A stretch of DNA of 64,000 nucleotides, from NCBI GenBank assembly GCA_944326155.1, contig CALVCV010000001.1, forward strand, positions 12,409-76,408, read 5' to 3'. The stretch is from an uncultured Bacilli bacterium. GTDB lineage: Bacteria > Bacillota_I > Bacilli_A > ML615J-28 > CAG-313. Below, piece after piece: positions 9,749-33,581 of this stretch. The notes beneath the pieces were generated by a model, which did not search any database, was not told the origin of the DNA, and worked only from the letters and a program-made list of their open reading frames with translations. Numbering within the stretch: position 1 is the stretch's first letter; the number at the start of each line of letters is the position of its first letter. The position numbers and the translations under genes are program-made.

Positions 9749-10730
9749 TGGTATTGCAACTATTATTTTTCTTATAATAGGTAGTGTTTATGGAATTACC
9801 TTATTCAAAGTAATGATACCCCTTTTAACAAAATTTAAATTGGGTCAATCTATTCGTAGTGAAGGTCCTAAAAGTCATTATACTAAAAGTGGAACACCTA
9901 CAATGGGGGGACTCGGTATAATTTTTGTAACAATTTTTTTGTATACTACACTTATTCTCTTTAATTATCATCATTTAGACCTCAATATTCATCAAATCTT
10001 ATTACTACTAATTCCTCTTATAAGCTTTGCCGCAATTGGTTTTATAGATGATTATTTGATTATAGTTAAAAAAAATAATATTGGTTTAAAACCATCTTAT
10101 AAATTTATCATTCAACTTTTAGTTAGTGCAATTGCGTATTATTTGACAATTCAAATAAGAAATACAAGTTCAATTAATTTTTTTGGTGAGACGCTTGATT
10201 TAAAATTTTTCTATGGCATTTTTATTATAATCGCTTTTACCGGATTTTCGAATGCTACAAATTTAACTGACGGCATTGATGGGTTACTTGGTGGAAGTAG
10301 TGCCATTATTATAATAGGTATTATATTACTTGCTAATCTAAAAGGAAATGATGAAGTCGTTATGTTTGGTATTAGTTTGTTAGTGGGAATTATCGCTTTT
10401 TTAGCTTTTAATCTGCCAAAAGCTCAAATCTTTATGGGAGATACGGGATCTTTAGCAATTGGAGCATCATTATTTTCAATGTTATTATGCTTAGATATGG
10501 ATATTTTGATTTTTATTTTTGGTTTGGTTTATGTTTTAGAAACTTTGTCTGTAATGCTACAAGTATGGTTTTTTAAAAGGACGAAAGGAGATAGACTTTT
10601 TAAAATGACGCCAATTCATCATCATTTAGAATTATGTGGATTAAAAGATTTTCAAATCGATGTTATTTTTTGGATTGTTACAGCTTTATTTACAATCTGG
10701 GCATGTATAATTGGGGTGACAGTATTTTGA
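9741..10730 (+). CDS. mraY: Phospho-N-acetylmuramoyl-pentapeptide transferase
   Basis: Polytopic membrane protein with conserved MGDTGSLAIGA and PIHHH motifs. 8-nt overlap with murE. Confidence 0.9.
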   Translation: MASGIATIIFLIIGSVYGITLFKVMIPLLTKFKLGQSIRSEGPKSHYTKSGTPTMGGLGIIFVTIFLYTTLILFNYHHLDLNIHQILLLLIPLISFAAIGFIDDYLIIVKKNNIGLKPSYKFIIQLLVSAIAYYLTIQIRNTSSINFFGETLDLKFFYGIFIIIAFTGFSNATNLTDGIDGLLGGSSAIIIIGIILLANLKGNDEVVMFGISLLVGIIAFLAFNLPKAQIFMGDTGSLAIGASLFSMLLCLDMDILIFIFGLVYVLETLSVMLQVWFFKRTKGDRLFKMTPIHHHLELCGLKDFQIDVIFWIVTALFTIWACIIGVTVF

Positions 10731-12016
10731 CAATACGATATTTACTTTATGGCTACGGGATAACTAATAAAGCAATAAGAAAATTTTTTGATACTAACCA
10801 TATTGATTATCTTATATATGTGGATAAAAAAGAAGATAAAGCGCCACCTAATGCTTTATTTCACCACTTTGATTGTGTAGTTAAATGTCCTGGTATTCAT
10901 TTTGATACGCCATTTTTAAAAAAATGTGAAGAATTACACATCTTAGTTATTAGTGATTTAGAATTACTTTATAATTTTTATCCTAAAAATGATTATGTAC
11001 TAGTGACTGGTAGCAATGGTAAAACTACGACAAGTTATTTAATATATGAGATGTTAAAAAAAAATAGCTTTTTTAAGGATGGTCTAGGAGGTAATATTGG
11101 TAAAGCGCTATTTTCACTATGTGATAGAAATCGTCACTCAAGAGGTATTGTGATAGAGGCATCAAGTTTCATGTTACATCATACTTATACCTTTAAGCCT
11201 AAAGTCTATGTTCTAACGAACTTAGTTTCTCATCATCTTGATTATCACCATGATACTGAAAGTTATTTTTATGATAAAACAAAACTCATTGCCAATCTGC
11301 AAGCTAGTGATTATTTGATTTACAATTTAGATGATGAAAATATCACAACACTAATAACCAAATATCACAAGCCAATTTGCTTTAACTATTCTTTAAATAA
11401 TCAAAAAGCTACATGTAGTATTCGCAATCAGATGATATACTATTTAGACAAACCTTTTTTAAAACTAGATGCGTTACAACAAACTACGCCAACTATTTTA
11501 TATGACATGATGGCTGCAATTTTGGTTGCAAAAATATATCATATTCCAACTGAAGATATTTTAACAACTTTAAAAATGTTTTGTGGGCTACCTTTTCGTT
11601 TTCAAGTCATTTTTAATAATCAAAAACTCGTTATTATTAATGATTCAAAAGCAACATCACCTAAAGCAACTTATTATGCCTTAAAAAATATCAATACTGA
11701 GTTTCAAGATTATTACAAGACAGTTATTTTAGGTGGTAGAATGGTAGATGAAAACTATGAAGAAATAAACGCTGAACTAAATCTTATAGATGAGGTATAT
11801 TTATTTGGTGAATCGCGTTTTGATTTACAAAAGCGTATTTTACATCGTAAAATATTTTATTATCAGTATTTAGAGGAAGTCATTGAATATTTAAAATTGA
11901 GAGAAAAGCATATAATTTTATTTTCACCGAGTTGTGTAAGTTATGATCAATTTACTTCATATATCAAAAGAGGGGAAAAATTTAATCATTTAATTAATCA
12001 AAAAATAAATTATTAA
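10703..12016 (+). CDS. murD: UDP-N-acetylmuramoylalanine--D-glutamate ligase
   Basis: P-loop VTGSNGKTTT; dcw order after mraY. Start is uncertain: ATG 10703, or TTG 10727 with a GGGGTGA RBS. The ORF-track ATG 10634 would overlap mraY by 97 nt. Confidence 0.8.
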   Translation: MYNWGDSILTIRYLLYGYGITNKAIRKFFDTNHIDYLIYVDKKEDKAPPNALFHHFDCVVKCPGIHFDTPFLKKCEELHILVISDLELLYNFYPKNDYVLVTGSNGKTTTSYLIYEMLKKNSFFKDGLGGNIGKALFSLCDRNRHSRGIVIEASSFMLHHTYTFKPKVYVLTNLVSHHLDYHHDTESYFYDKTKLIANLQASDYLIYNLDDENITTLITKYHKPICFNYSLNNQKATCSIRNQMIYYLDKPFLKLDALQQTTPTILYDMMAAILVAKIYHIPTEDILTTLKMFCGLPFRFQVIFNNQKLVIINDSKATSPKATYYALKNINTEFQDYYKTVILGGRMVDENYEEINAELNLIDEVYLFGESRFDLQKRILHRKIFYYQYLEEVIEYLKLREKHIILFSPSCVSYDQFTSYIKRGEKFNHLINQKINY

Positions 12017-12139: not shown

Positions 12140-13372
12140 ATGATGAATTTTGATGAAATTAAAAAAATAGCACAAAATTGTTTAAATTGTAATCAACCTT
12201 TATGTGTTGAACATTGTCCTCTACATAACCCGATTCCTGAAGTGTTATCATTGATTAAAGAGGATCAAATACAACAGGCAGCTGATTTGTTATTTAATAA
12301 CACAAATGCAAGTCCTATTTGTTCAAACTTATGCGATTTTAATCGCCAATGTTATGGTAATTGTGTATTAAATCATAAACAAAAAGCTATTAAATTTTAT
12401 GAGGTAGAGAAATATCTATCACAGTATTACAAAATGTTTGGTAAAAAAATGGATTTAAGAACAGAAAAAGTTGCGGTGATAGGTGCAGGAATTAGCGGTC
12501 TATCCGTTGCAATTGATCTTGCCATAAAAGGCTACAATGTTACTATTTTTGAAAAAAATTCACAAATAGGTGGCGTTTTAACTGATACCATTCCTCCTTT
12601 TCGTTTTGATGAAGAAATAATTGAAGTTTATCAAAAGTTACTAGGAAAATTAGAAATTGTTGTTCACTATCAACAGGAATTTGGTCAAAATTTACTTTTA
12701 GATGATTTGTCAATATTTAAATATGTAATTATGGCTATGGGTACGCAAAGTTCTAAAAAAACTTTAGAGAATAGCCCATATCATCTAGATTGTTTAGAAA
12801 TTTTAAGAAGAGGTAAAAAACATCAGTTACAATTATCTAATAAAACTATTTTAGTTATTGGTGGTGGAAATGTAGCAATGGATGTAGCAAGAACTTTAAA
12901 ACGCGCAGGCAATATCATCCATATTGTATATCGTCGTGATATTTTGAATGCCCCTGCAAACCAAAACGAAATTAAAGATGCCTTAAAAGAAGGTATTATT
13001 TTTGATGAATGCCTTGCGCCAATCAGATGTATCTATGAAGATGATGTATTAAAAGCATTAGAAGTTGAAAAGATGATGTTAGTTGATGATCCCAGTAGTA
13101 AACGTAAAACTTTTCAAAAAACAGGTGAATTTTTAACCATTTCGTGCGAATATATTGTTGAAGCAATTGGTTTAAATGCACAATATGATTACTTAAAATC
13201 CAAGTTACCAACTTTTTTTAATGAAAAGGGTTGGATTATTGATGAAGGATATGTAAAATATCATAATCAATATATTTTAGCAACAGGCGATTTTTTTAGT
13301 GGGGCATCAAACTTTGCCAAAGCAGCAGCAGAGGCTAAAAAAACTATTCAAAAAATGGAGAAATTAAAATGA
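12140..13372 (+). CDS. GltD-family NAD(P)H-dependent FAD/Fe-S oxidoreductase (glutamate synthase small-subunit-like)
   Basis: N-terminal Cys cluster CLNCNQPLCVEHCP; dinucleotide fold VAVIGAGISGLSVAIDLA and a second GGGNVAMD. No adjacent large GltB subunit. ATGA overlap with the downstream gene. Confidence 0.7.
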   Translation: MMNFDEIKKIAQNCLNCNQPLCVEHCPLHNPIPEVLSLIKEDQIQQAADLLFNNTNASPICSNLCDFNRQCYGNCVLNHKQKAIKFYEVEKYLSQYYKMFGKKMDLRTEKVAVIGAGISGLSVAIDLAIKGYNVTIFEKNSQIGGVLTDTIPPFRFDEEIIEVYQKLLGKLEIVVHYQQEFGQNLLLDDLSIFKYVIMAMGTQSSKKTLENSPYHLDCLEILRRGKKHQLQLSNKTILVIGGGNVAMDVARTLKRAGNIIHIVYRRDILNAPANQNEIKDALKEGIIFDECLAPIRCIYEDDVLKALEVEKMMLVDDPSSKRKTFQKTGEFLTISCEYIVEAIGLNAQYDYLKSKLPTFFNEKGWIIDEGYVKYHNQYILATGDFFSGASNFAKAAAEAKKTIQKMEKLK

Positions 13373-15768
13373 AAGTAGTATTTGGCGGTAGTTTTAATCC
13401 ACCAACAATAGCCCATGAAAAAATAATTGAAACTTTAGCACAACGTTTTGATGAGGTAATCATCGTACCTAATGGTGAAAAATATCGGAGAAAAGAATTA
13501 TTTTCTAATAACGATCGCATTAATATGTTACAAATTATTGCTAATCAATATTCAAATGTTACCATTTCCACGATTGAGTTAACGCGTGAATTTGAAGGTA
13601 CTTACAAGACCTTACGAGAATTACATCATCCGGTATTTGCTTGCGGAGACGACTGCTTATATGATTTTAAAACTTGGTTGCATGCTAGTGAATTACTAGC
13701 TGAAAACAAATTTCTAGTTTTTACAAGAAACAATCATATTGAACAAATCAAGAAGAAAATTGCAGAGGATGCTTTTTTGGCTGCTTATCAAGATAAAATA
13801 GAATTAGTACATATTGATTATCCAGATATTTCTTCTAAACAATATCGTAATACGCTTGATGATAAATACATATCAAAAAAAATTTTAACTTATATTGAAA
13901 AAAATAACTTATACAAGGAGAAAAATATGTTTGCCCATAATTATTTAAAAGTTGCCTTAGCAACTCCTAAAGTATATCTAGGCGATCCTGAAAAAAATGC
14001 CAAAGAAATTTTAAAAATTGCAAATGACAATCCAAGTGCAGCTATTATTGCTTTTCCTGAATTATCTTTAACGGGTTATTCACTTGGTGACTGGTTATTT
14101 AATGCGGAACTTCTAAAACAAGCAAAAGATGCGTTATATTTAGTAAAAGAACACACAGGTCAACAAATTATAATTATTGGTTTACCTTTTGAATACTGCG
14201 GAGCCATTTATAATGTTGCAGCAGTGCTCCAGAATAAGAAAATTTTAGGAATTATTCCCAAAGTAAACTTACCACGTACAGGTGAATTTTATGAAACACG
14301 TTTTTTTACAAGTGGTAAAAAAATTGTCCAAAATCCTGTTCAATTAGATTTATTTCATGAAATAGTTGATTTTGGCAGTTTACTTTTTAAAAATGAAGAA
14401 CACAATGTTTGTTTCGGTGTTGAAATATGTGGTGATATGTGGGGACAAATTAATCCTCATCAAGTTTTATTTCAAAGAGGAGCAGATATTATTTTTAATA
14501 TTAGTGCATCGACTTATAATTTTGAAAAAAAAGATGTTAAAAAAGCGTTAATAAAAAATGCTAGCAGTAAATTTGAAGGTGCATATTTATACGTTTCAAA
14601 TGGTCCAAGTGATTCAAGTAGTGATGTTACATATGCAGGTGATCAAATCGTCGCAATCTGTGGGGATTTTGTTTTAGAAAAACGAACTTTATCACTTGAT
14701 ACAGTTGTAAATTTAGTAGATATTGATATGGAAAAGATTCGTTTTATGCGTTATTCAGACGGATATTGCCGCGATAGTTTAGAAGTAGAAAATAATTTTA
14801 TTCGTTTTACACTTAATCAAACAAAGAATTATACACTTGAAACTCTTCCTAATTTACTACCTTTTGTCCCAAATTCTGCTGATGAAATGAATGAAATCAT
14901 CGATGTTACTGCAACGTCGTTAATGCACCGTTTGGATTATATTCATACTTCTAAAGTGATTATAGGAATCAGTGGTGGTCTTGATTCCACTCTTGCTTTA
15001 CTATTTGCTTATTACACATACTTAAAATATGGATTAAATATCAAAAATATTATTGCGGTAACAATGCCTGGACTTGGAACCGGTAGTAAATCAAAAAATA
15101 TTGCTATTCATTTAATGCAAAAATTAGATGTAACAATGATGGAAGTTTCAATCAAAAAAGCTGCTCAAAATCATTTAAAGATGTTAGAGCATGATTTACA
15201 AAACAAAGATGTTACTTATGAAAATGTTCAAGCTAGAATTAGAACGATGTACTTAATGAATTTAGCAAACAAAGAAAAAGGAATTGTTCTTGGTACAGGT
15301 GATATGAGTGAAATTGCCCTTGGTTGGTCTACATTTAATGGTGATCATATGTCAATGTATAGCCTAAATTCGGGTCTACCTAAAACTACGATAAAAGCAT
15401 TAGTGAAACATTTTGCCACTCTTTATCCGCAAATTAAAAATGAATTAAACAAAGTATATAATGCAATTATTAGTCCTGAATTAACCGGTTTTGATCAAGC
15501 AACTGAAGAAAAAATAGGTAAATATCAAATTAATGATTTTATTTTATATCATCTTTTTATAAATGGCGCATCAAAGGATCGATTAATTTTTTTGCTCAAC
15601 GTTTGTTTTAATTTAAATCTTGAAGAATGTCAAAAATATTATGATAATTTTCTTTCACGTTTTAATCACAATCAATATAAACGTCTAACTGGTGCAGAAG
15701 GTATCAAGATATTTAAATTAACTTTAAGTCCAAGAGGGGACTTTAGATATCCTGGTGATATGGAGTAG
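13369..15768 (+). CDS. Fusion protein: nicotinate-nucleotide adenylyltransferase (NadD-like) + glutamine-dependent NAD+ synthetase (CN-hydrolase domain + NadE PP-loop domain)
   Basis: aa 1-185 NadD-like (GGSFNPPTIAHEKI cytidylyltransferase motif). From aa 187 (internal ATG 13927 with AAGGAG RBS), a CN-hydrolase with the E/K/C triad (FPELSL, IPKVN, EICGD). C-terminal NAD synthetase PP-loop GISGGLDSTLAL. Confidence 0.8.
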   Translation: MKVVFGGSFNPPTIAHEKIIETLAQRFDEVIIVPNGEKYRRKELFSNNDRINMLQIIANQYSNVTISTIELTREFEGTYKTLRELHHPVFACGDDCLYDFKTWLHASELLAENKFLVFTRNNHIEQIKKKIAEDAFLAAYQDKIELVHIDYPDISSKQYRNTLDDKYISKKILTYIEKNNLYKEKNMFAHNYLKVALATPKVYLGDPEKNAKEILKIANDNPSAAIIAFPELSLTGYSLGDWLFNAELLKQAKDALYLVKEHTGQQIIIIGLPFEYCGAIYNVAAVLQNKKILGIIPKVNLPRTGEFYETRFFTSGKKIVQNPVQLDLFHEIVDFGSLLFKNEEHNVCFGVEICGDMWGQINPHQVLFQRGADIIFNISASTYNFEKKDVKKALIKNASSKFEGAYLYVSNGPSDSSSDVTYAGDQIVAICGDFVLEKRTLSLDTVVNLVDIDMEKIRFMRYSDGYCRDSLEVENNFIRFTLNQTKNYTLETLPNLLPFVPNSADEMNEIIDVTATSLMHRLDYIHTSKVIIGISGGLDSTLALLFAYYTYLKYGLNIKNIIAVTMPGLGTGSKSKNIAIHLMQKLDVTMMEVSIKKAAQNHLKMLEHDLQNKDVTYENVQARIRTMYLMNLANKEKGIVLGTGDMSEIALGWSTFNGDHMSMYSLNSGLPKTTIKALVKHFATLYPQIKNELNKVYNAIISPELTGFDQATEEKIGKYQINDFILYHLFINGASKDRLIFLLNVCFNLNLEECQKYYDNFLSRFNHNQYKRLTGAEGIKIFKLTLSPRGDFRYPGDME

Positions 15769-16103: not shown

Positions 16104-16132
16104 TTGACTAAAGTTTAATTTAATGGTATAAT
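16104..16132 (+). promoter_or_regulatory. sigma-A type promoter for the valS T-box leader
   Basis: TTGACT (16104-16109), 17-nt spacer, TATAAT (16127-16132). Confidence 0.6.
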
Positions 16133-16139
16133 AAGATGA

Positions 16140-16390
16140 TTTGATTTATTTAATAAAATCTTTGATGAGGAAGAGTAAAAAACAAGTATTTTTAGAGATA
16201 AGTTGTTTGGTGAAAAACTTAATTATTTGTTTTTGAAGGTAGCCTTTGAGATGCTTAAGTGAGAAAGTTTCATTAACTTAAGCCGTAACTTTGCGTTAAA
16301 ATGATGAGAGAATAAAAATTATTTATTAACAAAGGTGGTACCGCGGATTACGTTTCGTCCTTTAAAAAAGGATGAAACTTTTTTTATTTG
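16140..16390 (+). promoter_or_regulatory. T-box riboswitch leader (tRNA-sensing antitermination) upstream of valS
   Basis: Conserved T-box sequence AAAGGTGGTACCGCGG at 16331-16346. Immediately followed by a terminator hairpin GUUUCGUCCUUU/AAAGGAUGAAAC (16352-16378, one G.U) and U-run. Upstream GA/K-turn-like tgatgag and AGAGA box (16193). Candidate Val specifier GUA at 16239-16241. Confidence 0.75.
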
Positions 16391-16409: not shown

Positions 16410-19040
16410 ATGTTTAAACTAAAGACAAAAGACATGGCACCGAAATATGTATTTAAAGATGTAGAGGAAGGAAAGTATAATTATTGGGTTAAGAATGGCT
16501 TTTTTACAAGTGGCGATCAAAGTAAAATACCATACACGATTGTTATTCCCCCACCAAATGTAACTGGTAAATTGCATATTGGGCACGCATGGGACACAAC
16601 GCTTCAAGATATTATCATTCGTCGTAAAAGAATGCAAGGTTATGATGCTTTATGGATTCCTGGTATGGACCATGCAGGAATTGCTACACAAGCTAAAGTC
16701 GACGCAAAATTGAAAACACAAGGCGTTAGTCGATATGATTTAGGGAGAGAAAAATTTTTAGAAGTCGTTTGGGATTGGAAGCATGAATATGCTGAATTTA
16801 TTAGAAAACAATGGGCTGTACTTGGATTATCACTTGATTATACAAAAGAACGATTTACTTTGGATGAAGGTTTACAAGAAGCTGTTAAAACGGTCTTTGT
16901 TCGTTTATATAATGAAGGATTAATTTATCGTGGCGAACGTATTATTAACTGGGATGTTGAAGCTAAAACGGCGCTTTCTAATATTGAGGTCGAATATAAG
17001 GAAATAGAGGGTGCTTTCTATCATATTCTATATCCTTTTGTAGATGAAGATGGTGGCTTGGAAATTGCAACTACAAGACCTGAAACGATGTTTGGTGATG
17101 TTGCGTTGATGGTCAATCCTAATGATGAACGTTACCAAAAATATATTGGTAAAAATGTCTATATTCCAGGTACCAATCGTATTATTCCTATTATTAGTGA
17201 TGAATATGTTGATATGGAATTTGGCACAGGTGTAGTTAAGGTAACGCCTGCCCATGATCCAAATGACTTTGAAGTAGGAACACGTCATCATTTAGATTGT
17301 ATTATTTGTATGAATGAAGATGGTACAATGAACGAATATGCAGGCAAATATCAAGGTATGGATCGTTTCAAATGTCGCGATGAAGTTGTAAATTATTTGC
17401 AACAACATGGTCTATGCACCAAAATTGAAAAATTGGTTCATTCTGTTGGTCACTCAGAAAGAACAGGTGTTATAGTTGAACCAAGACTTTCAAAGCAATG
17501 GTTTGTAAAAATGGAACCACTTGCTAAAGATGTACTTGATATGCAAGCAAGTTGCGATGCTATTGAATTTATCCCACCTCGCTTTAGTAAAACCCTTGAA
17601 ATATGGCTAGATTTAAATAATATTCAAGATTGGTGCATTTCTCGACAACTTTGGTGGGGACATCGCATTCCTGCTTGGTATAAGGGAGAACAGGTTTATG
17701 TTGGTATGTCAGAACCCATTGGCGATGGTTGGGTTCAAGATGAAGATGTTTTGGATACTTGGTTTTCGAGTGCTCTTTGGCCTTTTTCAACCCTTGGCTG
17801 GCCAAAAAAGACAAGTGATTTACAAAGATACTTTCCACTTGATTGTCTAGTTACTGGTTATGATATTATTTTTTTCTGGGTTGCTAGAATGGCTATTGAC
17901 GCAAAGCATTTTATGAAACAAAGACCATTTAAGAAATGTTTAATACATGGCTTGATTCGTGATGATCAAGGTCGTAAGATGAGTAAATCTTTAGGTAATG
18001 TCGTTGATCCATTTGATATTGTTGATCAATATGGTTGTGATGCTTTGCGTTATTTCTTAACAACCAATTCAACTCCAGGTCAAGATTTACGATTTTCTGA
18101 TGAAAAAATGGCCTCATCTTGGAACTATATTAACAAAATTTGGAATATTTCTCGTTTTGTCAAGATGAATTTAATCAACAATAATTATCAAGGTGAACAA
18201 ATTGATTTTCTAAACTTAACAGCTTTGGATAGTTGGATTTTAAGTAAAATGAATGCATTAATTACTTATGTAGATAGTAAATATGAGAGTTTTGAATTTG
18301 GTGAAGTTGCAAGAGCCATTTATAATTTTACATGGGACGACTTTGCTTCATGGTATTTAGAAATGACCAAAGTTGATTTTATAAAAACAGAACAAGAACG
18401 TAAGATAAATACTTGTGCAGTGTTAACTAAAGTTTTAATTACAATTGTTAAGCTACTTCATCCGTTTATGCCATTTGTGACTGAAGAAATTTTTCAAAAT
18501 TTCTATGACTCATCAATTACTATAAGTGAGTGGCCAAAAGTGGTAGATTGTTCTTTTAATCAAACAATTATCAATGAAACAAGTAAATTATTTGAAATTA
18601 TTACTACTGTTCGTAATATTCGTAGTGAAATGAATGTTCCAATGAGTAAAACTATTAATATCTCACTTGAAACAAATGATGACGCTTTAAAGAAATTTTT
18701 ACTTGCTCATCAAGAATATTTAAAAAAATTTACGAATTTTGATCAATTAGTAATTGCGAAAACTATAGATAAGACTGATGCGATTGTTAAAGTAATCGAA
18801 AATATTAATGTTGTTATTTTGTTAAAAGAATTGATTGATATTGATGAAGAAATTGCAAAACTAAAATTAAAATACGAAAAATTAGAAAAAGAAGTGGCAA
18901 GATCTGAGAATATGTTAAATAACCAAAACTTTATTTTAAAAGCACCTACTTCTAAAATTACGGAGGAAAAAAATAAATTAGCTAGTTATCAAGAGCAATT
19001 AAAAGAAGTTAAAGAACTTCTTTTAGAGTTGGAAAAATAA
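16410..19040 (+). CDS. valS: Valyl-tRNA synthetase
   Basis: HIGH motif PPPNVTGKLHIGHAW and KMSKS motif. 876 aa with C-terminal coiled-coil. Confidence 0.95.
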   Translation: MFKLKTKDMAPKYVFKDVEEGKYNYWVKNGFFTSGDQSKIPYTIVIPPPNVTGKLHIGHAWDTTLQDIIIRRKRMQGYDALWIPGMDHAGIATQAKVDAKLKTQGVSRYDLGREKFLEVVWDWKHEYAEFIRKQWAVLGLSLDYTKERFTLDEGLQEAVKTVFVRLYNEGLIYRGERIINWDVEAKTALSNIEVEYKEIEGAFYHILYPFVDEDGGLEIATTRPETMFGDVALMVNPNDERYQKYIGKNVYIPGTNRIIPIISDEYVDMEFGTGVVKVTPAHDPNDFEVGTRHHLDCIICMNEDGTMNEYAGKYQGMDRFKCRDEVVNYLQQHGLCTKIEKLVHSVGHSERTGVIVEPRLSKQWFVKMEPLAKDVLDMQASCDAIEFIPPRFSKTLEIWLDLNNIQDWCISRQLWWGHRIPAWYKGEQVYVGMSEPIGDGWVQDEDVLDTWFSSALWPFSTLGWPKKTSDLQRYFPLDCLVTGYDIIFFWVARMAIDAKHFMKQRPFKKCLIHGLIRDDQGRKMSKSLGNVVDPFDIVDQYGCDALRYFLTTNSTPGQDLRFSDEKMASSWNYINKIWNISRFVKMNLINNNYQGEQIDFLNLTALDSWILSKMNALITYVDSKYESFEFGEVARAIYNFTWDDFASWYLEMTKVDFIKTEQERKINTCAVLTKVLITIVKLLHPFMPFVTEEIFQNFYDSSITISEWPKVVDCSFNQTIINETSKLFEIITTVRNIRSEMNVPMSKTINISLETNDDALKKFLLAHQEYLKKFTNFDQLVIAKTIDKTDAIVKVIENINVVILLKELIDIDEEIAKLKLKYEKLEKEVARSENMLNNQNFILKAPTSKITEEKNKLASYQEQLKEVKELLLELEK

Positions 19041-30574: not shown

Positions 30575-30579
30575 TTATG

Positions 30580-30664
30580 TCTAGCAACCGCTCAAAAAGG
30601 GTTTACAAGTGATTAATCCACCCTACTGGCGTGTCTTAAAAATATTTATGAGGAGGTAATTTAG
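30580..30664 (+). promoter_or_regulatory. rplU 5' leader (L21-leader-like cis-regulatory RNA)
   Basis: About 90-nt structured leader (gcaaccgctcaaaaagggtttacaagtgattaatccaccctactggcgtgtc...) between the promoter and the rplU RBS. Position and length match the Firmicute L21 leader element. Assignment is from context, not from a covariance model. Confidence 0.35.
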
Positions 30665-30971: not shown

Positions 30972-31313
30972 ATGATACAAGTTTTTTTAGTTAAAGATGA
31001 TAATTTATGGACAAAGTTGGAAGTGACTGGTCATGCAGACTATGCCGATTATGGCAAAGATATAGTGTGCGCAGGTATTTCAACTGCTGTATTGATGAGT
31101 ATAAATCTACTTGAAAGAATTATACCTAATTGTTTTGATTTGATTCAAAATGAAAAAAAAGGATATATCAGCTTGACTCATTTACAATATAATAATCTAG
31201 AAAAGGAAACTATTTCTTTTGTAAATACTATTTTTGAAAATTTGAAAGATACACTTTTAGACTTTCAAGCGAGTTATCCTAATAATTTACTTATAAAAAT
31301 TGAAAATAAATAA
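30972..31313 (+). CDS. prp: Ribosomal-processing cysteine protease Prp (YsxB/DUF464)
   Basis: Prp family with catalytic His/Cys context ([21 protein letters not shown]); lies between rplU and rpmA. Confidence 0.85.
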
Positions 31314-31326
31314 TAGGAGGTTCATC

Positions 31327-31608
31327 ATGATAAGACTGAATTTACAATTTTTTGCATCTAAAAAAGGTGTTAGTTCTACTAAAAATGGTCGTGACTCTGA
31401 GTCTAAACGTTTAGGTGCTAAATTATCTGATGGTCAATTTGCCACTGCTGGTTCTATTATCTATCGTCAAAGAGGTACAAAAGTTCATCCAGGTAAGAAT
31501 GTTGGTCTCGGAAAAGATGATACATTGTTTTGTATGATTGATGGTATTGTTAAATATGAACGCAAAGGTAAAGATAAAAAACAAGTTTCTGTATACCCAG
31601 TGGAATAA
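31327..31608 (+). CDS. rpmA: 50S ribosomal protein L27, with Prp-cleavable N-terminal extension
   Basis: [30 protein letters not shown]... N-terminal propeptide ends in FF before ASKKG, as in S. aureus and B. subtilis. RBS aggagg. Start 31327 rather than the ORF-track 31300. Confidence 0.9.
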
Positions 31609-32987: not shown

Positions 32988-33581
32988 ATGACTAAACACG
33001 AAAGAATTCAAAAAATTTCTTTAACTGCAATTTTAGCATCGCTAGTTGTTGTAGTGGCATTTATACCAATTAAAACATTAGGTTTGGAAATTACTCTTAC
33101 AATTATCCCGATAGCGATTGGTGCTATAATTGGTGGACCATATGTAGGATTAATTTTAGGGACAATTTTTGGCTTTGTTAGTTTTTTTCAATGCCTTGGC
33201 TATAGCCCTTTTGGGGAAGTCCTTTTTTCAATTAACCCTTTTTTGACTTTTCTTGTCTGCGTTCCTACTAGAATGCTTGCAGGATGGCTACCTGGGCTAC
33301 TTTATAAGTTGATTGCAAAAAGTGGGAATAAGACATTAGCTAGTGCAATCGCTTGTTTTCTGATGCCCTTTTTAAATACCATCCTTTTCATGACTATGCT
33401 AGTCATTTGTTTTTACCAAACAGACTATATTCAAGAATTGGCAAATATGCTTAAAGCAGCGAATCCACTGACCTTTGTTATTCTATTTGTGGGTATAAAT
33501 GGACTCATTGAAATGCTATGTGGCATGTTAATTTCTTTTCCAGTAACGAAAGCCTTAGACTATGTTATCAATCAAAAATAA
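32988..33581 (+). CDS. ECF-transporter S-component-like small membrane protein
   Basis: 197 aa with 5-6 TM helices and a Gly-rich TM1 (IGAIIGGPYVGLILGTIFG), typical of ECF substrate-capture components. Substrate unknown; no riboswitch upstream. Confidence 0.45.
   Translation: MTKHERIQKISLTAILASLVVVVAFIPIKTLGLEITLTIIPIAIGAIIGGPYVGLILGTIFGFVSFFQCLGYSPFGEVLFSINPFLTFLVCVPTRMLAGWLPGLLYKLIAKSGNKTLASAIACFLMPFLNTILFMTMLVICFYQTDYIQELANMLKAANPLTFVILFVGINGLIEMLCGMLISFPVTKALDYVINQK

Follow-up and report, generated by a model that had tools for sequence, protein, structure and literature searches.

The stretch of DNA analysed here, a 64-kb window (29% G+C) from an uncultured Bacilli bacterium, carries an open reading frame (ORF) in which the enzymes of the final two steps of NAD biosynthesis are joined: a NadD-type adenylyltransferase and a glutamine-dependent NAD synthetase (NadE). 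Counted from its ATG, the ORF runs for 799 codons in one frame and stops directly after codon 799. The encoded protein consists of a NadD-type domain (residues 1-182), a linker of four residues and a NadE part (residues 187-799). Pfam profiles recover the same order, with CTP_transf_like at residues 4-161, CN_hydrolase at 194-388 and NAD_synthase at 515-740. The start of the fused gene overlaps by the sequence ATGA with the stop of an upstream ORF that encodes a GltD-like flavoprotein of 410 amino acids (aa). An earlier reading of these letters alone (the sequence-only reading) had described both the in-frame fusion, with its domains and motifs, and the ATGA coupling, and on these points our analysis agrees with it. 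The features of the locus are collected in Table 1.

Table 1. Features of the nadD-nadE locus and its surroundings (positions as counted within the window)
Feature	Position	Strand	Remarks
GltD/NfnB-like NAD(P)H-FAD-2x[4Fe-4S] oxidoreductase gene	12140..13372	+	410 aa; Pfam Fer4_20, Pyr_redox_2
Fused nadD-nadE ORF	13369..15768	+	799 aa; Pfam, NCBIfam, AlphaFold2 model
NadD (nicotinic acid mononucleotide adenylyltransferase) domain	13369..13914	+	aa 1-182, ends in invariant Leu-Tyr; PF01467
ATP-binding motif GGSFNPPTIAH	13384..13416	+	aa 6-16; T13-x-A15-H16 variant of (H/T)xGH
Second nucleotidyltransferase motif ISSKQYR	13828..13848	+	aa 154-160; S155, S156 invariant (alignment A2)
TAC codon, Tyr182	13912..13914	+	conserved NadD C-terminal residue; L181 and Y182 invariant (A2)
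Linker Lys-Glu-Lys-Asn	13915..13926	+	4 codons, the first two being AAGGAG
Shine-Dalgarno sequence AAGGAG	13915-13920	+	6-nt spacer (13921-13926) to internal ATG
Internal in-frame ATG, Met187	13927..13929	+	nadE start codon in split relatives
Glutaminase (CN-hydrolase) domain	13927..14772	+	about aa 187-468; triad E231, K298, C354
Triad codons	E231 14059-14061, K298 14260-14262, C354 14428-14430	+	
NAD synthetase (PP-loop ATP pyrophosphatase) domain	14866..15765	+	about aa 500-799
PP-loop SGGLDS	14971-14988	+	aa 535-540
Promoter-like site TTGACT-17-TATAAT with upstream TG	16104-16132	+	strong
T-box leader	16153-16365	+	Rfam RF00230, 136 bits
T-box terminator	16352-16378	+	ahead of valS
valS	16410..19040	+	after T-box; element 16104..16378 forms the downstream boundary

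Catalytic modules of the fused protein

The NadE part scored 559.2 bits against the NCBIfam equivalog NF002730 (cut-off 473), over residues 185-798. In an alignment of 80 sequences its glutaminase triad is conserved and aligns to that of Mycobacterium tuberculosis NadE, and the six residues of the PP-loop (S535-S540) are invariant. The complete glutaminase with its E-K-C triad and the PP-loop synthetase are shared with the fused 'type F' NadE enzymes (NF002730/PRK02628; M. tuberculosis 3DLA/3SYT); what sets the window protein apart from the M. tuberculosis enzyme is the extra N-terminal NadD module of 186 residues. The AlphaFold2 model of the whole fusion, built with 80 sequences, reached a mean predicted local distance difference test score (pLDDT) of 90.7 and a predicted template modelling (TM) score of 0.76, with a drop in confidence, to about 74, around the linker only. 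When the model was compared with solved structures using Foldseek, its NadE part matched 3SYT, 3SEZ and 6OFC with E-values of around 1e-49, target-normalised TM scores of 0.85-0.86 and root-mean-square deviations of 2.1-2.6 Å, and no single solved chain was recovered that spans the NadD and the NadE modules.

The N-terminal domain scored 74.2 bits against PF01467 (cut-off 21) and is a divergent but motif-complete member of the NadD family. Its best match in the PDB was 5LLT, the nicotinic acid mononucleotide (NaMN) adenylyltransferase of Plasmodium falciparum (PfNaMNAT; E-value 8e-9), with whose catalytic aspartate, in the GSD sequence, D95 aligns. The sequence-only reading had pointed to the T-x-A-H variant of the ATP-binding motif; the variant is indeed present, and it gives little cause for concern. 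T13, A15 and H16 are invariant across the fused and split relatives (alignment A2), and PfNaMNAT has the same variant (GGSFDPITYAHE). Considering that the Plasmodium enzyme is active in vitro, with a Km of 36 uM for NaMN, complements an E. coli nadD defect and loses its activity in the D110A mutant (PMC3991606), the variant is compatible with activity. Taken together, the domain resembles bacterial NadD (EC 2.7.7.18; TIGR00482/PF01467), and 5LLT especially, in its fold family, GGSFxPxT-x-A-H sequence, catalytic aspartate, ISSxxxR motif and C-terminal Leu-Tyr, whereas it differs from bacterial NadD in being covalently joined to NadE, in scoring under the equivalog cut-off (see below) and in belonging to a subgroup with frequent fusion or coupling to a flavoprotein of the GltD type. 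The earlier placement of the NadD motifs, the CN-hydrolase triad and the PP-loop proved accurate, and all three catalytic modules are intact.

As an observation in its own right, the closest solved relative of the region 13369-13926 is the P. falciparum enzyme, with which it shares the T-x-A-H variant and the C-terminal Asn-Leu-Tyr; this likeness may be of relevance to a bacterial origin of the enzyme in Apicomplexa.

Fused and split relatives and the junction between them

A homologue search that covered 5.8 billion proteins showed that the three Pfam domains recur together in fused proteins of 796-802 aa, which fall into at least 15 clusters (P0001-P0014 and P0017) at identities of 53-100% (100, 77, 67, 66, 64, 59, 58, 56 and 53%). 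They were found on hundreds of independent contigs, exact sequences recurring on up to 603, and a scan of reference genomes found the fused gene at seven loci, including those of Staphylococcus sp. CAG:324, an uncultured Mollicutes genome, several 'Bacilli bacterium' metagenome-assembled genomes (MAGs) and an Anaeroplasma bactoclasticum MAG. The fused architecture has been conserved across a clade of gut Bacilli or Mollicutes-like bacteria, uncultured and AT-rich. For the less saturated pairs (synonymous divergence, dS, of 0.6-1.3) the ratio of nonsynonymous to synonymous divergence (dN/dS) was 0.05-0.2 in both halves; a single divergent pair gave a ratio as high as 0.33 for the NadD domain. 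Both halves are by this measure under purifying selection.

The gene order common to the relatives is murE-mraY-murD-like, gltD-like, nadD, nadE, T-box valS and folC. At the same syntenic site, split relatives have a nadD of 184-187 aa immediately 5' of a nadE of 610-613 aa, and the split NadEs start at the Met that matches Met187 of the window. This arrangement bears out the proposed origin of the fusion from two tightly packed, adjacent genes. In two of the split loci the stop of nadD is in frame with nadE: L001 reads ...TTA TAT CAG GAG GAA AAT TAA directly followed by ATG, and L002 reads ...TAC CAA AAG GAG GTC TAA GAG ATG. In two others it is out of frame, with a TAATG overlap in L009 and a gap of 11 nt in L013. 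In the fused L024, which groups with L001 in both trees as its closest fused relative, a TTT codon occupies the place of the TAA of L001.

To follow the two states we used a neighbour-joining tree built from the NadE parts of 44 sequences (612 columns, 100 bootstraps), in which the fused genes fell into at least three groups. The first is the main fused clade, with the split P0016 nested inside a group with 96% support; the second is formed by P0013/L010, beside the split P0019-P0024, and the third by P0014/P0017, beside the split P0025-P0033 (86% support). Fitch parsimony on this tree requires at least four changes between the fused and the split state, with a split root, and on this basis the fusion has apparently been gained or lost several times. 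A separate point concerns L001, whose nadD (1835-2398) is alone among the split copies in nesting within fused relatives. Its second motif reads ISSTKFI, with an Ile replacing the Arg of ISSxxxR. This gene, seen on a single contig, may have been split again recently, may be a copy in decay or may reflect a read error.

The junction in the window reads aac tta tac aag gag aaa aat ATG ttt gcc. The sequence-only reading had this sequence, the TAC codon, the AAGGAG and the internal ATG right and erred in the spacing, which is 6 rather than 7 nt. The NadE Met is present in all fused proteins, across 11 variants of the linker (KEKN, KEGC, KKGNF, KEDV, QEVG, NKEGI, EVKN, SERGKA, MEER, QKVEES and KEDC/S). 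Moreover, a Shine-Dalgarno core (AAGGAG, GAGGTG, AGAGGT or GAGGAA) lies 5-10 nt before the NadE ATG in 12 of the 13 fused loci, as compared to 13 of 249 other in-frame ATGs of the same fused genes and, across the ORFs of the window, to 18 of 395. The codon choice tells the same story: the dipeptide Lys-Glu is encoded by AAG-GAG in all six cases at the junctions and in one of 78 cases elsewhere in the fused genes, and within the ORFs of the window AAG makes up 15% of the Lys codons and GAG 13% of the Glu codons. The retention of these codons, although synonymous sites are near saturation between the lineages, points to selection on the nucleotide sequence. Given the Shine-Dalgarno sequence within the linker and the invariant NadE Met, free NadE is probably also still made, by internal initiation at Met187.

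Competing readings of the fused gene

Considering the above, it is very probable that the ORF represents a genuine nadD-nadE fusion that selection has maintained. The NadD domain would convert NaMN and ATP to nicotinic acid adenine dinucleotide (NaAD), which the NadE part would then convert, with ATP and glutamine, to NAD+. Both activities would be present in a fixed 1:1 ratio and side by side, so that a hand-over of NaAD is possible. The fusion would have arisen through the loss of the nadD stop located beside the nadE start. Such a loss is presumably easily reversed, and the lineage would have switched between the fused and the split state at least four times. With the Shine-Dalgarno sequence in the linker and the invariant Met, the gene probably also yields free NadE, and internal initiation would make the two states nearly equivalent, which would explain the repeated switching.

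Several points weigh against the view of a maintained, two-product fusion. The evidence on the fused proteins comes from sequences and, for the window protein, from a predicted model. The number of switches is approximate, as some deep nodes of the neighbour-joining tree have bootstrap values of 44-66, and the nested split P0016 is known from one contig. The fused loci that enter the Shine-Dalgarno and codon counts share ancestry and are not phylogenetically independent, and the codons that resemble a Shine-Dalgarno sequence could act as a translational pause instead of a start. The NadD domain scored 98.3 bits (full protein) or 102.8 bits (domain alone) against the NadD equivalog TIGR00482, under the cut-off of 112.45, so that the score does not establish a preference for NaMN over nicotinamide mononucleotide (NMN). 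Finally, the M. tuberculosis-type NadE (as in 3DLA) is said to be a homo-octamer with an ammonia tunnel, and the N-terminal domain of 186 residues, modelled here within a monomer and on a linker of only four, would have to fit such an assembly.

It is possible, and we hold it for a tentative alternative, that the fusion is a neutral read-through. In that case NadE would mainly come from the internally started protein of 613 aa, the full-length product would add neither channelling nor assembly, and the state of the gene would simply drift. The repeated switching, the retained Shine-Dalgarno sequence and ATG, and the persistence of both arrangements in sister lineages are all consistent with this. 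Drift is less easily reconciled with the main fused clade, which has kept the fusion among members with a dS above 1 and with as little as 59% protein identity, with one nested split member only. In addition, NadD must come from the full-length message, which makes the 90-kDa product its sole source.

A second alternative concerns the activity of the N-terminal domain, which might be another nucleotidyltransferase, for instance an NMN-preferring adenylyltransferase (NMNAT) or an adenylyltransferase of the FMN/FAD type that serves the flavoprotein. The low TIGR00482 score and the non-canonical T-x-A-H motif leave room for such an assignment, as do the frequent fusion of the domain to the FAD-dependent GltD-like protein and the existence of GltD::NadD loci without an adjacent nadE. 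Nevertheless, we think it unlikely, since the best family and structure matches are all to NadD or NaMN adenylyltransferases, since an enzyme with the same motif is a proven NaMN adenylyltransferase (PMC3991606) and since NadE, to which the domain is fused or beside which it is encoded, uses NaAD as its substrate, which favours the production of NaAD.

The genuine fusion is unlikely to have originated in the way first proposed, namely by a change of TAA to TAC at the Tyr182 codon in a gene whose NadD once ended in ...NNL. The codon is, as had been stated, a single substitution away from TAA or TAG and lies upstream of the Shine-Dalgarno sequence and the ATG. The proximity to a stop is literally true and nothing special, because the neighbouring AAG, GAG and AAA codons are equally close to one. 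Tyr182 is invariant in the fused and the split NadDs and aligns with the C-terminal Leu-Tyr of the E. coli enzyme (...GLYR) and of PfNaMNAT (...NLY), from which we infer that the TAC was never a stop. Furthermore, none of the orthologous loci L001, L002, L009, L013 and L030 has a stop at this position, and in the split relatives the stop is found 4-5 codons beyond Tyr182, at 0-1 codon from the nadE ATG. The proposed substitution is for these reasons highly improbable. We also considered an alternative genetic code and discarded it: the junction is without any stop, and the TGA of the upstream gene is followed by a TAG two codons later, so that code 4 changes nothing.

That the genome in truth has separate nadD and nadE genes, the stop having been lost through a sequencing or assembly error, is hardly credible: the 613-aa gene calls within the same 90% cluster (P0125) come from short contigs and are explained by contig ends, the junction has neither a frameshift nor a stop codon, the 799-aa members of that cluster from NCBI, ENA and Logan assemblies have the identical junction ...NNLYKEKN-MFAHNY..., and the fused orthologues at 53-77% identity in many species are at odds with the suggestion that relatives are uniformly split and this genome a lone error.

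The upstream flavoprotein and the wider setting

The product of the gene upstream of the fusion is most similar, among solved structures, to NfnB of Thermotoga maritima (4YLF_B) and GltD of Azospirillum (2VDC_G), with E-values of around 1e-41. Both its Cys4 motifs and the GxGxxG/A motifs for flavin adenine dinucleotide (FAD) and NAD(P)H align to these two structures. It falls outside every NCBIfam equivalog considered (GltD, NfnB/GltA, PreT, AegA and others), the best score being 209 bits against cut-offs of 472-1103, and by its sequence it forms a separate subfamily, annotated just as 'FAD-dependent oxidoreductase'. With the family of NfnB, GltD and the N-terminal part of dihydropyrimidine dehydrogenase it shares the Fer4_20 domain with two Cys4 motifs and the Rossmann motifs for FAD and NAD(P)H. 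In contrast to that family, it has NadD as the protein with which it is coupled or fused, and the usual partner is missing from the window: genes for NfnA/PyrK-, GltB- or PreA/PyrD-like partners were found neither in the 64-kb window nor in the related loci. The annotation of the rest of the window contained no further NAD genes either.

A search with the NadD domain, covering 1.84 billion cluster representatives, revealed that at least 15 of the best 150 matches were proteins of 570-617 aa with NadD at the C-terminus, and the seven of these that were tested all had the composition Fer4_20, Pyr_redox_2 and CTP_transf_like. A further search extended this GltD-like::NadD fusion to around 40 clusters, of 577-643 aa and 34-94% identity; examples are L015 (4807-6543), L016, L018, L020 and L030 (1467-3266), as well as P0174, a subset of P0187-P0264, and P0455-P0489. 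NCBI names these proteins 'FAD-dependent oxidoreductase' or 'FAD-binding protein' only. If gltD-like, nadD and nadE are denoted G, D and E, separate genes by a slash and fusions by a double colon, five arrangements can be discerned at the same syntenic site: G/D/E (L001, L002, L013), G/D::E (the window and relatives), G::D/E (L030/L031), G::D::E (L005) and G::D followed directly by valS, with no nadE at the site (L015-L018, L020). The triple fusion of L005 (5001-8636; P0011, 1211 aa) holds the GltD-like, NadD and NadE parts in one ORF on a single Logan contig, and P0018 is a related fragment; its first junction (...TGT CAA CGT GTT GTT TTT GGG...) has no residual nadD ATG. The lineages with G::D, from ruminant and other gut MAGs, have no nadE between the fusion and valS, for instance in L015 (6543-6863), L016 and L018.

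Within the NadD tree, the clade of the window nests in a group rich in G::D fusions. The nearest flavoprotein homologue outside the group, from Clostridium botulinum (34% identity), is not located beside nadD, so the association with nadD is not general to the flavoprotein family. Within the group, the recurrent fusions suggest a functional link of the flavoprotein to NadD. One may go further and propose that the flavoprotein is a true partner of NadD and NadE in one module that can be split and fused, and that the fused gene yields two products, NadD-NadE and free NadE; we offer this combined view as a speculation with a limited chance of being right. The flavoprotein may then tie the final steps of NAD synthesis to the redox state of NAD(P)H or ferredoxin, for example if NadD were controlled by redox state or by NAD(P)H; alternatively, it may add an undescribed redox step that acts on a pyridine-nucleotide intermediate.

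As to the other surroundings, no terminator was found between the stop of the fused gene (15768) and the T-box element of valS. On the upstream side, the ORF for a MurD-like Mur ligase (10634-12016, called from its first ATG) overlaps mraY (9741-10730) by 97 nt, and its true start probably lies further downstream. Elsewhere in the window there are a ribosomal protein L21 leader (30576-30646; Rfam RF00559, 47 bits), upstream of small ORFs at 30972-31608, and a gene for the S-component of an energy-coupling factor (ECF) transporter (PF12822) at 32988-33581.

Adenylyltransferases of NAD metabolism are known as parts of other fusions. NadR combines an NMNAT with a ribosylnicotinamide kinase, and NadM-Nudix is a fusion as well. 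NadD-YqeK of the Mollicutes (PRK07152, 361 aa) likewise joins the adenylyltransferase to an enzyme of the same pathway or neighbourhood. The window protein is set apart from these three by its partner, NadE, which acts next in the main pathway. Neither a NadD-NadE nor a GltD-NadD fusion was found described in the searchable literature, and De Ingeniis 2012 (PMC3376133) and Rodionov 2019 (PMC6593275) mention neither of them. The 'NadB2' of the latter study was followed up and gave no lead for the GltD-like protein. The component enzymes are ordinary and their sequences were already public; what stands out is their joining, which links consecutive steps of the pathway, together with the probable internal start and its conservation, the repeated changes between the fused and the split state and the unexplained flavoprotein partner.

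NadD and NadE are nearly universal and essential, which goes along with an interest in them as targets for antibacterials. A NadD-NadE that occurs naturally as one chain supports, as gene fusions do, the functional coupling of consecutive steps, and would be a compact enzyme with which the hand-over of NaAD could be studied biochemically and structurally. The locus also illustrates with what ease packed genes in small, AT-rich genomes can switch between fused and split states while a putative internal ribosome-binding site is kept. A word of caution applies to annotation, because NCBI names the fused proteins 'NAD(+) synthase' only, and pathway reconstructions that rely on this label could conclude that these gut bacteria lack nadD. 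Lastly, the recurrent fusion of the flavoprotein to NadD points to a redox connection of NAD biosynthesis that is as yet uncharacterised.

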